10,132 nt of DNA from a virus (taxonomy: Duplodnaviria; Heunggongvirae; Uroviricota; Caudoviricetes), in IMG/VR virus record IMGVR_UViG_2630968500_000005; one strand, given 5' to 3'. The notes below the pieces were generated by a model. That model was not told the DNA's origin, searched no databases, and saw only the letters and a list, made by a program, of their open reading frames with translations. Within the stretch, counting starts at the first letter, position 1. Each line of letters opens with the position of its first letter. Positions 828-3,549 of this stretch are shown one piece after another. Both the position numbers and the translations under genes were made by a program.

Positions 828-1847
828 TTATTTGAACGGATTGATTGAATTATTAAACGTGATGATGCTTGTCTTACGCGGTGCCTGGACGTTAGCCGCT
901 TGCGGAACCTCCTTAATTTTCTTGGTGACAGGCAAGTTGCGTGCTCCAACTTTGATCAGAGATTCGAAAAGTGTGGCAACGATTTTTGCATCACCAGGTT
1001 CTTTGAGTCGGAATGCGTCTTTTTGGGCGGCGGAGACGAATATCGGGAGGTTATCCAGTTCGTCTTGCATTGCTGCCAGCACATCGTCGCGGATACCCGC
1101 AGTTTTCTCCAGCAAAGCGATTCGCGCTTCAGCATCTGCGATCTTGGCCATTGCTTCGAGGTGGCGGCCCTGGCTTTCGAGTAGTGCGGTTTCCAGTTCT
1201 GCCGTACGCTCTGTCGCCTCCACCATCATTTCCAGTTCAGCCATTTTGCCGTAATGGGATATAACGGCCTGCACTGACTCGTCGGAGTACCCATGCGCCG
1301 CCAGGGACTCTGCCAGTAAGGATTTAGAATCCGCGCTTTCAAACATTCCGGCGCTGGCAGGATGATCCAGACTGATATAGTTCGGCGTTGTCACATAATC
1401 CACACCATGGAAGCTGGTGGTTACAGCGATTTTCCCGGACTCACGCCCGCCAGTGGCCCAGCTCCAGCCACCAGCTCGGCTTTCGATCATCGCGGCGACA
1501 ATTTTACCCGGCTCTGTGTTAAGAATTTCCTGTGTATGGGTAACGATGCCGTTGTCGTCAACAGATATAGCCACTGTGCGGCACGCTGGAACATTGTCGA
1601 TTACGACCGGGCGACCTTCCACCATGATCACGCTGGTTTCTGGTACTTCCAGTTTGCCGGTCAGCTGTCGGCGACCGTGACCGTAATAGCCGAAAAGCTC
1701 ACCAAGGCGTAAACCTTCCTGAGTTTCCTTGCTTTCAAGCATGGTCTTTACCGCGCTTAATACATACTGTCGCCCGTTCTGGCGACCTTTTCTAGCATTA
1801 CTATAGAGACAAAAGCGGTCAGTGACCGTTTTCAAAACATCAGTCAT
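828..1847 (-). CDS. pro: prohead (head-processing) protease with C-terminal coiled-coil, scaffold-like region; P1 Pro-like
   Basis: Minus-strand ORF with stop at 828-830. The ORF-track start at 1877 is a TTG. The in-frame ATG at 1845-1847 is preceded by GAGGG with 8-nt spacing and overlaps the prt stop (ATGACTGA), so 1847 is the preferred start (339 aa). The C-terminal third is Ala/Glu/Leu-rich with heptad-like periodicity (...[49 protein letters not shown]...). The protease assignment rests on synteny with portal and lysozyme in P1-like phages; no catalytic motif was verified. Confidence 0.65.
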
Positions 1848-3549
1848 TCTCGTTTCCCTCTTTAAAGACCGATTCAAGGATTTGCGCCAGTTCCTGTGGC
1901 GGTGTTTTGATGATGGAATCCATCAGGTGATCGTCGTCCTCGCTTTTCGCTTTCAGTTCGTTCACCAGTGCTTCAGAGATTTTTTCGTCAATCTCCAGCA
2001 CATCGCTGAACAGGTAACGTTTGAATGCATCGGAATTGGCGAGGACGCTGTTATTGCTGACGGCATCGAGGATTTGCGTAACGATGGTGGCGTAGTTCGC
2101 CTGCGAGTCGCGGTTATCGTTGTGCTCTTGTTGCAGAGCGGTATTAACGGAGTGGAATTCGATTTTGTACGGGCGATCACCTTCCGGGTATACCTTGCCG
2201 TACTTGAAAGCAAGATGAATATCGATAGCCCGCTGAATGAACTCTTCTACGCCCTGCTGGATCCATGAGGCGCGCATGGCGGCCTGAATTGCCGTGCGCA
2301 GGAATCCACCTTCACCAAGCCCGCCGGACATTTGATCTGCCCACCCCAGGAGGGTGTAATCGAGGCCAAGTGCTGCCGCCAGCTGGCGCATATAGGTGAG
2401 AATGTCTTCAATGCCGTTGATATCAGCCTGGATGGTCTGAGTATCAATAGTCATCTGTCCCTTGCCGTCGCCCATAATAGGCAGCAGGGTATTGGTCACC
2501 GTAGGCATGTTATTCGCGCCGCGTGCGCGCTTTTCCATCAGGTCAGCTGCTCGTTTAAGCGTCTGAGTAATGGTGCGCGAATAATCGGCTGCTTTTACCG
2601 GATCCAGACTATTCATCGCCAGGCCGATGATTCGGTCAATTTTCGACGCATTAAAACGCGTTGCCTTCAGCGAGCGGATCGCCGAACGCAGATTCATGTA
2701 CGGCTCGTAGGCGTATTCGAGCAAGCTGGTCCCGTAATTCTGGGTTTCAATCGGCGTGCGCTCTTCCGGATTATCCAGCAAGCTGTATGCTTTATGGCCA
2801 GTGTGCACAGGCATAAGGTTTGACTTAGGCCGCCAGTAGGGGATTTTCATAGGGATAATGGCCCACGGATCGGCGAAAACCATTTTCCCTGACGCGCCCT
2901 TCAGATAATCGCCGCTAAATCCCGCCAGGTTTCCGCTGACCTCGAACTCTTTGATGAAGCCCGGAAGGGTGTAATAGGAGCACTCAAAAGACGTGATCCC
3001 TATGCCTTCTTTGGCGTATGGCCTGACATAAGCCACCCCAAATACAGACATGATAAATGCCCACCCGGCGACCTCTTTGTTGATGGTTCGCCCGATGTCG
3101 TTCATCAGCTCGTCACACAATGCCTGCGCGGCGTCATAGTCACTATCGTTTCCGTTATGTACCGGCACGATAGAGAAGGTTTGTCCGGTCTTCTTATCGA
3201 AAGAGAGCGCGTGCGTAATATGGATGTTCAGCGCGGTGGCGATCGTGCTGTAAACCGCCATCTCTTCGAGTAGCGGATAGCGTTGCAAGCGATCTTCCGG
3301 CAGTTGAACTTCATCAAAGATAAAGCGACTTCCGTCCACCAGCCCATCGCCAGCCATGCCACTATCGCCCGGTTTGCCGCCTAAGAAGCCGGACAGTTGT
3401 ACCGGTGCCCCTGCGCGAGAAAACAAATACCCACTTCCGCCGTGCACAGCCAGCGCGGACAGGAGGATGTTGTCCCGTTCTCCGTTGTCTTTAAAAACCC
3501 CCGCCAGCGCCTTCCTGACCGAGGATAGCGTGATTTTATTGTCTGCCAA
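1840..3549 (-). CDS. prt: portal protein (P1 Prt-like), 569 aa
   Basis: Long minus-strand ORF immediately upstream of, and overlapping, pro. Size about 64 kDa with an acidic C-terminus (...[13 protein letters not shown]...EGNEND), typical of portals. Start appears to be TTG at 3547-3549 preceded by AAGGTG with 5-nt spacing; the next in-frame ATG is 64 codons downstream. Identity is inferred from size, position and recalled P1 gene order (darB-prt-pro-lyz), not from a verified domain hit. Confidence 0.65.

Follow-up and report, generated by a model that had tools for sequence, protein, structure and literature searches.

Two minus-strand genes, prt and pro, together occupy positions 828-3549 (open reading frame listing) of the window, the 10,132-nucleotide stretch of DNA analysed here, and raise the question of what the C-terminal half of Pro, the head-maturation protease, does. 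Over 3 kb, the window shares 98.7% identity with phage P1 DNA, and prt-pro here is a late operon of a P1-like phage-plasmid. Both are textbook P1 genes whose identification is already known: P1 has the same genes, TTG start, overlap and LPpro promoter (AF234172; PDB 9UMS; Gonzales et al., 2022; PMC12810830), and the differences from it are allelic only, five residues in Prt and a single substitution (E325K) in Pro. Taken as a whole, the locus is likely explained as a P1-like prt-pro pair encoding the portal and a gp21-type Pro with a self-cleaved helical targeting extension.

Organization of the prt-pro operon

3592-3610, minus strand: late promoter LPpro, upstream of prt-pro, from the P1 annotation (GenBank AF234172)
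3610-3602, minus strand: -22 box of LPpro, AAGTGACTA, located in the window sequence
3597-3592, minus strand: -10 box of LPpro, TAAATT, likewise located in the window sequence
1840-3549, minus strand: prt, portal protein, 569 aa, TTG start, from its match to PDB 9UMS, PHROG 1497 and a conserved N-terminus
1840-1847, minus strand: 8-nt overlap ATGACTGA, comprising the pro ATG (1847-1845) and the prt stop TGA (1842-1840)
1856-1860, minus strand: Shine-Dalgarno sequence of pro, GAGGG, 8 nt 5' of the ATG and within the prt coding sequence
828-1847, minus strand: pro, head-maturation protease, 339 aa, ATG start, stop codon at 830-828, from the open reading frame and comparison with P1
797-814, no strand assigned: G+C-rich hairpin CCCCGGCAGCCGCCGGGG, lying between two convergent units, lyz-lydD-lydE and prt-pro

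Only one of the 75 bases from the start of prt to the start of darB differs between the window and P1, and LPpro would drive prt-pro in the role annotated for it in P1. A T-tract follows the CCCCGGCAGCCGCCGGGG hairpin on the plus strand only. P1-like plasmid homology ends at position 9870, within the neighbouring darB, and IS66-like sequence lies beyond.

The first-pass annotation of this DNA had read an overlap of prt and pro and taken it to indicate translational coupling. The 8-nt overlap is there, and is also found in P1, so that coupling of pro to prt is plausible: the arrangement allows it and does not prove it. Against it stand the Shine-Dalgarno sequence that pro has of its own and the lack of conservation of the overlap in distant relatives, which have gaps of 3 and 8 nt or an overlap of 1 nt. 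A longer pro beginning at a TTG at position 1877, proposed by the open reading frame program, was rejected: it has no Shine-Dalgarno sequence, and the 37 homologues aligned all begin at the ATG position or close to it. No separate scaffold gene lies between portal and protease, as had been remarked, a trivial absence because the two genes overlap. The P1 capsid gene lies about 38 kb from prt-pro, and pro adjoins the portal gene in every relative examined.

The portal protein starts at a TTG codon

3549-3547, minus strand: TTG start codon of prt, read directly from the sequence
3560-3555, minus strand: Shine-Dalgarno sequence of prt, AAGGTG, with a 5-nt spacer to the TTG, overlapping an in-frame TAA (3561-3559)

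The proposal that prt starts at a TTG behind a good Shine-Dalgarno sequence holds on several counts. The in-frame TAA stands four codons upstream of the TTG, and the next ATG is found only at codon 65. Homologues with 42-48% identity align from residue 1, with M1, K5, T7 and F19 invariant, and carry ATG or GTG at the equivalent position; the same TTG is annotated in P1's own GenBank record. Such a start may keep portal output low.

The 569-residue product is the dodecameric portal, in agreement with the first-pass annotation. Prt is identical at 564 of 569 residues to chain C ('Prt') of PDB 9UMS, the cryo-EM model of the P1 virion, in which the portal is dodecameric (PMC12810830). Through this identity and that description, it corresponds to a dodecameric ring with clip, stem, wing and crown at the unique vertex. 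Prt also matches PHROG 1497 'portal protein' (E 1e-260), and published HHpred results link it to T4 gp20 (3JA7, 100%; Gonzales et al., 2022). Its match to Pfam PF07230 (Portal_T4) over residues 269-494 fell below the curated cutoff (15.8 vs 22.9 bits, E 0.006).

The N-terminal domain of Pro resembles T4 gp21

1368-1847, minus strand: gp21-like serine protease domain, Pro residues ~1-160, from AlphaFold2, Foldseek and conservation
1679-1677, minus strand: catalytic candidate His57, from family conservation
1463-1461, minus strand: catalytic candidate Ser129, from family conservation
1400-1398, minus strand: catalytic candidate Asp150, from family conservation
1538-1536, minus strand: His104, also invariant, from family conservation

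Sequence searches with Pro gave no match in NCBIfam, none in the PDB by phmmer and two profiles, and no protease family in Pfam at E<=1, where coiled-coil noise alone appeared (Dynamitin, ATG16). The N-terminal domains of 50 diverse family members, searched one by one against Pfam, likewise gave no protease match, PF03420 (Peptidase_S77) included; Pro is too diverged from gp21 for detection by that family. The AlphaFold2 model of the N-terminal domain alone was confident (pLDDT 91.5, pTM 0.86), and T4 gp21 (5JBL) took ranks 1-3 in a Foldseek search of the PDB (probability 0.97-0.99), with TM-scores of 0.45-0.49 that fall slightly short of 0.5, followed by the KSHV, HCMV, PRV and EBV proteases. 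In BFVD, the domain had 51 matches at E<=1e-3; the top ones were annotated as 'prohead core protein serine protease' (E 4e-8, TM up to 0.64), and COG3740 'phage head maturation protease' ranked below the gp21-type matches. Many of the best BFVD matches are gp21-like proteins of 470-650 residues, which suggests that long extensions are common on such proteases. The full-length model had left Foldseek ambiguous (best E 7e-3, TM <0.3), its long helix distorting the alignment; the model of the N-terminal domain alone resolved the fold.

Conservation, scored on 128 representatives after clustering at 50%, points to a His-Ser-Asp triad of the kind described for gp21-type enzymes (PMC5694885): H57 is present in 124 of 125 non-gap sequences, S129 in 127 of 128 and D150 in all 128. 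Profile alignment of the Pro family with gp21 alone by hhalign had a probability below 1%, and with 118 gp21 homologues, close relatives of low diversity, it was weak (E 0.02); this weak alignment, used for residue correspondences alone, pairs H57, S129 and D150 with H85, S140 and D168 of gp21. The structural model thus identifies residues ~1-160 as a T4 gp21-type serine protease domain with the herpesvirus assemblin fold, and on the same modelled fold the Pro family is closest to T4 gp21 (MEROPS S77, PF03420), with which it shares the order His...Ser...Asp. The protease assignment of the first-pass annotation is therefore upheld, and the HHpred comparison that it proposed is already in print, with a 99.44% match of Pro to T4 gp21 (5JBL_A; Gonzales et al., 2022, Table S4).

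The C-terminal half of Pro is helical, then disordered

951-1331, minus strand: helical Ala/Glu/Leu-rich extension, Pro residues 173-299, from AlphaFold2, composition and alignment
831-950, minus strand: disordered tail, Pro residues 300-339, from pLDDT <50 at 301-333 and alignment

The C-terminal ~140 residues of Pro had been described as helical and rich in Ala, Glu and Leu. AlphaFold2 predicts helices at residues 173-184, 189-265, 273-278 and 284-299, and a disordered tail of about 40 residues (pLDDT <50 at 301-333), so that the description is right only to about residue 300. Together, Ala, Glu and Leu account for 35% of the residues at 195-339 and 45% of those in the long helix at 189-265, vs 20% in the N-terminal domain. 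The alignment reveals a conserved block (LP-F...Q..A...D...LFES) in the C-terminal region and, in the tail, a conserved Leu305-Pro306 and C-terminal aromatics (ITF...PF); residues 300-339 may form a capsid-binding tail.

Two further descriptions of this region find no support. It had been called a coiled coil, and its heptad occupancy was no better than that of shuffled sequences, a fraction of 0.32 of which reached the observed value. [quoted passage not shown] The likeness fails because Pro is a different protein from the capsid protein, on which the delta-like domain of P1 sits as the N-terminal 120 residues of gp23 (PMC12810830). Compared with the gp23 propeptide and with the T4 scaffold gp22, the Pro C-terminus resembled neither. 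What Pro does have is a protease domain (~1-160) followed in the same frame by a helical one (173-299).

Repeated motifs predict self-cleavage of the extension

1335-1346, minus strand: linker motif Met168-Phe-Glu170/Ser171 (MFE170|S171), from conservation, disorder and its gp23-like form
within 951-1331, minus strand: LAES, Pro residues 178-181, motif
within 951-1331, minus strand: LLES, Pro residues 222-225, motif
971-960, minus strand: LFES, Pro residues 293-296 (LFE295/S296), motif

Pro contains six [LIMVF]-x-E-S motifs vs 0.53 expected (p about 1e-4), and we found no earlier report in the literature of this array of predicted self-cleavage sites in its helical tail. Two of the six, at residues 36 and 120, fall within the folded part of the model and probably escape cleavage. 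The linker motif follows the protease domain in a segment of pLDDT <50; E170 and S171 never vary among 38 P1-like homologues, at least 90% of which keep M168. It has the same form as the gp23 site AMLE120|S121 (AMLE/SVAAEM), mapped by Edman sequencing, at which a scaffold-like propeptide of 120 residues is lost. MFE170|S171 is hence a predicted self-cleavage (release) site of Pro.

The N-terminus of DarA is also lost during head maturation (PMC12810830); its model begins at residue 70 and DLLE68/A69 fits as the site, so that DarA may be cut at LLE68/A69. T4-type proteases cleave after Glu (PMC5694885). The papers ascribe the gp23 and DarA cuts to Pro, and a direct demonstration of cleavage by Pro was not found in them, nor did biochemical data on its catalysis or its own products turn up. 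The statement that the head protease processes antirestriction proteins accordingly stands as far as DarA is processed in maturation, and the naming of Pro as the cutter is an attribution in the literature. In the virion proteome, where Pro was assigned to the head, only three Pro peptides were detected, consistent with its loss after maturation.

Across the family, the linker and the C-terminal motifs vary together. Among proteins with Glu at the linker, the C-terminal region averages 3.7 motifs of Glu type and 0.64 of Asp type; with Asp at the linker, the averages are 0.52 and 2.28, respectively, kinship being ignored in these averages and in the counts that follow. Glu-type motifs outnumber Asp-type ones in 42 of 45 Glu-linker vs 1 of 64 Asp-linker proteins, the classes being largely separate clades. 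In a third class, LLSS stands at the linker and again repeatedly in the C-terminal region. These sequence patterns support, and leave unproven, a self-cleaved targeting or scaffold-like extension of Pro.

Comparison with other head proteases

T4 gp21 and the phiKZ and SPN3US proteases (S80) cleave in the hydrophobic-x-Glu context that is predicted for Pro. Self-cleavage in the C-terminal region is known for the phiKZ and SPN3US enzymes (PMC5694885) and, again, predicted for Pro. In the weak alignment (E 0.02), ITE187|S188 of gp21 is equivalent to MFE170|S171 of Pro, directly after the catalytic domain; what follows is a helical extension of ~170 residues in Pro and ~25 residues in gp21. In T4, the core and scaffold genes 67, 68 and 22 separate portal and capsid; P1 lacks such genes at this place and has its capsid gene in another part of the genome.

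Herpesvirus UL26 is also composed of an N-terminal protease of the same fold and a helical region. Its release site follows the protease domain, where Pro has its predicted equivalent, and its maturation site would correspond to the second conserved site of Pro, LFE295|S296, ~43 residues from the C-terminus and ahead of the possible capsid-binding tail. Unlike Pro, the herpesvirus enzymes have a Ser-His-His triad and cut at Ala/Ser sites; herpesviruses also make free scaffold from the nested gene UL26.5, of which pro gives no sign. The likeness to UL26 is an analogy based on the positions of motifs.

In lambda C/Nu3, Mu I/Z, P2 gpO and HK97 gp4, the C-terminal region of the protease serves procapsid targeting, scaffolding or both and is later removed by the protease; the lambda and Mu scaffolds arise by internal initiation, and the targeting tail of HK97 gp4 is short. 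That HK97 tail is said to have been documented by Duda in 2013. Lambda C is an S49-family peptidase (PMC10695390). Beyond these protease-scaffold arrangements, P1 has a delta-like propeptide on the capsid protein too.

Targeting extension or scaffold

In the explanation that we favour, residues ~165-339 of Pro would form a helical, sacrificial extension that takes the enzyme into the assembling prohead core. Contact with the gp23 propeptide or inner shell is probably made by residues 266-306, the conserved block, and by the C-terminal tail. Once the prohead is assembled, self-cleavage of Pro at MFE170|S171 and the hydrophobic-x-Glu-Ser sites downstream of it would release the catalytic domain and reduce the extension to small peptides that leave the head. 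Similar cleavage and loss of peptides occur in the T4 core proteins and herpesvirus UL26.

The Pro C-terminus could plausibly act as a scaffold, and a capsid-targeting, self-destructing extension fits the evidence equally well. Such a role is not required, since scaffolding has been ascribed to the N-termini of gp23 and DarA and P1 is said to have no separate scaffold (PMC12810830). A protease-scaffold fusion, with a C-terminal half of Pro that serves as a true internal scaffold and is needed for shell assembly or size determination, is in our judgement rather unlikely. It would account for the long helical region after the protease domain, the several predicted cleavage sites (as in T4 gp22), the 470-650 residues of many best-matching gp21-like proteins and the lack of a known separate scaffold gene in P1; the extension is also modular and repeated in some relatives, as in P0146, where three repeats are bounded by the cleavage motif. 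However, gp23 bears its own 120-residue coiled-coil propeptide, taken as scaffold (PMC12810830), the Pro C-terminus resembles neither that propeptide nor T4 gp22, and no internal start backed by a Shine-Dalgarno sequence is there to supply free scaffold in excess.

This last point leads us to reject a scaffold gene nested in pro and read from an internal in-frame start at Met168, Met202 or Met207/208, which is very improbable. Met168 is indeed conserved in at least 90% of P1-like homologues and residues 202-208 include several Met codons in frame, but no Shine-Dalgarno sequence can be recognised 3-11 nt from any of these ATGs, nor does one accompany any in-frame ATG, GTG or TTG between residues 160 and 260. 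Met168 is moreover accounted for as P3 of the cleavage motif, gp23 having Met at the same position (MLE|S), and the wider family has L, M, V or I there.

Older and automated labels, by which Pro is a kinase/phosphatase activating a host protease (note in GenBank AF234172) or a 'tail fiber protein' (RefSeq and PHROG 1801), can practically be set aside and are already contradicted by the modelled fold: the confident model matches prohead proteases only, His, Ser and Asp are invariant in the family, the published HHpred match is to gp21 at 99.44%, the virion proteome places Pro in the head, pro sits beside the portal gene in all relatives examined, and Pfam gave no kinase, phosphatase or fibre family match. 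In P1, pro is essential by CRISPRi, polar effects being possible (PMC10695390).

Implications for P1-like phages

Returning to the targeting extension, we would tentatively, at somewhat less than an even chance, join these observations into a wider reading. The C-terminal half of Pro may be an unrecognised prohead core or targeting module that destroys itself at a hydrophobic-x-Glu/Ser 'code', this code having been switched in concert at every site in different lineages (Glu, Asp, Ser-Ser); in some relatives, DdrB-like anti-restriction cargo may have acquired the motif and a copy of the Pro domain that lacks the histidine, as a tag for loading into the capsid.

The re-identification of two textbook P1 genes changes little. 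The public annotation of Pro is poor, and a proper protease model could be built for its family of ~330 members. The co-varying, repeated motif provides a concrete and cheap hypothesis for how Pro enters and leaves the prohead, and it predicts processing sites in P1 that are relevant to the use of P1 capsids for the delivery of protein cargo.

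The prt-pro locus

The region consists of known P1 genes, correctly recognised by the first-pass annotation. Window positions 700-3700 are 98.7% identical in a database search to positions 17161-20161 of the phage P1 record AF234172, and P7, RCS47, SJ46 and further P1-like phage-plasmids likewise match this interval. The P1 record lays out lyz, lydD, lydE, pro, prt and darB just as here, with neither order nor orientation changed, and places the late promoter LPpro 5' of prt. The darB-prt-pro order, with darB divergent from prt, is kept in relatives whose Pro is only ~40% identical, and CRISPRi classes prt as well as pro as essential, with polar effects possible (PMC10695390).

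Genes of the portal-protease locus in window coordinates
828-1847, minus strand: pro, head-maturation protease
1840-3549, minus strand: prt, portal
3625, plus strand: start of darB

At its other end, pro meets lydE (633-848, plus strand), the convergent 3' ends sharing 21 nt. A single G+C-rich hairpin (797-814) lies in the 3'-terminal 52 nt of the lydE frame, 14 nt past the pro stop, and has a T-tract only on the plus strand. P1-like plasmid homology ends at 9870, within the darB ORF (3625-10098), and the remaining 262 bases (9871-10132) match an IS66-like element found in thousands of E. coli records and annotated as 'IS66-like element accessory protein TnpA'. The element thus breaks darB close to its 3' end, and the 2157-aa ORF as listed owes its final ~75 residues to read-through into the IS. 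E. coli G5 plasmid NZ_CP060066 carries the entire junction at 100% identity.

As had been proposed from the sequence, prt and pro overlap by 8 nt (minus strand 1847->1840, ATGACTGA), where ATG starts pro and TGA stops prt. The same overlap is found in P1; in distant relatives it is absent, the two genes being separated by 3 and 8 nt or sharing a single nt. The sequence GAGGG lies 8 nt 5' of the pro ATG. A longer pro ORF from a TTG at 1877 was rejected, having no Shine-Dalgarno, and each of the 37 aligned homologues has its start at the ATG or close to it. The TTG start of prt at 3549 also held: AAGGTG lies 5 nt 5' of it, an in-frame TAA occurs four codons upstream, the first ATG does not come before codon 65, and portal homologues of 42-48% identity from a Photobacterium plasmid (GTG start) and a metagenome (ATG start) align from residue 1, so that this start is well supported. 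The P1 major capsid gene 23 is also annotated with TTG (6772-6774 of its locus, L006), behind AAGGAAGAG; both genes thus use TTG, and that of prt is unremarkable. The proposed coupling and the TTG start are both ordinary.

The identity of the 569-aa product as the portal is settled, 564 of its 569 residues being identical to chain C, 'Prt', of PDB 9UMS, the portal of a 2026 P1 cryo-EM structure, a dodecamer with clip, stem, wing and crown domains (PMC12810830). Prt matches Pfam Portal_T4 below threshold only, and PHROG 1497 in full.

The N-terminal domain of Pro

Sequence and profile searches of Pro against Pfam, NCBIfam and PDB gave no meaningful match. A first search returned 166 homologues, on P1-sized contigs where size was recorded, and a profile of residues 1-172, run against 1.8 billion cluster representatives, retrieved 329 proteins at E<=0.001; His57, His104, Ser129 and Asp150 are essentially invariant in 128 representatives from this set. 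An AlphaFold2 model of residues 1-172, built from a 50-sequence alignment, reached pLDDT 91.5 and pTM 0.86. In a PDB fold search with this model, T4 gp21 chains (5JBL) took ranks 1-3 (probability 0.97-0.99, TM 0.45-0.49), followed by herpesvirus proteases, and a viral structure library gave 51 matches at E<=0.001, led by 'prohead core protein serine protease' proteins (E 4e-8, TM 0.64). The first-pass annotation thus survives its own refuting condition, a Pro N-terminus lacking any protease fold; the modelled fold is of gp21 type, in agreement with the already published HHpred match of Pro to 5JBL_A (99.44%; Gonzales et al., 2022, Supplementary Table S4). A weak profile-profile alignment with the gp21 family (E 0.02) pairs His57 with His85, Ser129 with Ser140 and Asp150 with Asp168; in residue type these match the His-Ser-Asp triad reported for gp21-type enzymes (PMC5694885). 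On these models, the Pro family appears closest to T4 gp21, and gp21-like rather than related to HK97 S78 or lambda S49. Pro is labelled a 'putative kinase/phosphatase probably involved in activation of host protease' in the P1 GenBank note and a 'tail fiber protein' in RefSeq (NC_005856, NC_050152, NC_042128) and PHROG 1801, both in conflict with the predicted protease fold.

The C-terminal half of Pro

A helical, Ala/Glu/Leu-rich C-terminus had been proposed, and its composition and the helices of the full-length model (173-184, 189-265 as a single 77-residue helix, 273-278 and 284-299) agree with this, but residues 301-333 form a disordered tail. The proposed coiled coil is likely but putative, as a heptad test scored no higher than shuffles. 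Neither the gp23 propeptide nor the T4 gp22 scaffold showed similarity to this half of Pro. The label 'delta-domain-like' is wrong. No internal start with a Shine-Dalgarno was found among the in-frame ATG, GTG and TTG codons of residues 160-260. In the published view, P1 is without a separate scaffold, and the N-termini of gp23 and DarA provide scaffolding (PMC12810830). A scaffold role for the C-terminal half of Pro, on top of targeting, is a reasonable but hypothetical reading.

Cleavage-type motifs and their covariation

The sole mapped P1 maturation site is gp23 E120/S121 (AMLE/SVAAEM; the slash marks a mapped or, in the other motifs below, a predicted cleavage position). The cryo-EM model of DarA starts at residue 70, which DLLE68/A69 fits as a putative site. 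Shuffling predicts 0.53 [LIMVF]-x-Glu-Ser motifs for Pro, which in fact has six (p about 1e-4), and we found no literature report of repeated cleavage-type motifs in this protein. One of them, MFE170/S171, is invariant in 38 P1-like homologues and comes immediately after the folded part, where pLDDT drops to <50; another, LFE295/S296, lies ~43 residues before the C-terminus, with conservation of at least 90% in P1-like homologues. T4 gp21 (7449-8087 of the gene 21 locus, L008) has PMLE25/S26 before its catalytic domain and ITE187/S188 after it, of the same form as gp23 MLE/S and the Pro linker MFE/S; in the weak profile alignment (E 0.02) ITE187/S188 stands opposite MFE170/S171.

The family falls into a Glu and an Asp class according to which acidic residue its repeated motif carries. 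In raw counts that ignore kinship, the C-terminal region of Glu-linker proteins has on average 3.7 motifs of Glu type and 0.64 of Asp type, and that of Asp-linker proteins 0.52 and 2.28, respectively; Glu-type motifs outnumber Asp-type ones in 42/45 Glu-linker versus 1/64 Asp-linker proteins (2x2 table, kinship ignored). A small third class (P0146, P0153, P0163, P0176) has LLSS or LFSS at the corresponding sites, with LLSS in the linker and again, more than once, in the C-terminal region; P0146 (456 aa) carries three tandem C-terminal modules with the motif at each boundary. Such concerted change at all sites is expected if the active site of each protein recognises every one of its own motifs.

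Antirestriction proteins

Of the packaged antirestriction proteins that the head protease was suggested to process, DarA is documented to undergo processing, and we found no evidence of DarB cleavage; DarB residues 1-30 are a capsid-targeting signal. Three proteins of 830-850 aa (P0217, P0226, P0239) begin with a Pro-like domain in which the GGWSW serine and the Asp are retained and the histidine is lost (GYYGH to GYFEK or GYYEK), followed by a hydrophobic-Phe-Glu-[Ala/Ser] motif, a DdrB-like ParB domain and an HExxH metallopeptidase. In one relative (L009, 10001-12499) such a gene occupies the ddrB position of the dar operon, and the element also carries a normal pro (336 aa) adjoining prt (583 aa). 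These sequences suggest that a dead protease domain now serves as a capsid-loading tag, joined on by a linker that can be cleaved. P1 DdrB (L007) has GGLFE/SVSGG at residues 439-442. DdrB is reported to be processed to ~76 kDa, with autoproteolysis proposed (PMC5512222); position 441, ~48 kDa from the N-terminus, is no obvious fit to that size.

A possible maturation pathway

gp23 and DarA are known to undergo processing. T4-type enzymes cut after Glu, and the phiKZ and SPN3US proteases self-cleave C-terminally (PMC5694885). The helical extension and tail of Pro may dock it within the assembling shell; once this has assembled, Pro would cut gp23 and DarA, free itself at E170/S171 and chop its own extension into fragments able to leave. 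Such self-release and extension removal would fit the detection of Pro in virions at trace level (3 peptides, 9.7% coverage). The predicted layout resembles that of herpesvirus UL26, in which a protease is followed by a release site, a helical region, a maturation site and a capsid-binding tail, and likewise the way protease and scaffold are arranged in P2, lambda and Mu. The small novelty lies in the motif enrichment and covariation, together with the poor public annotation of Pro.
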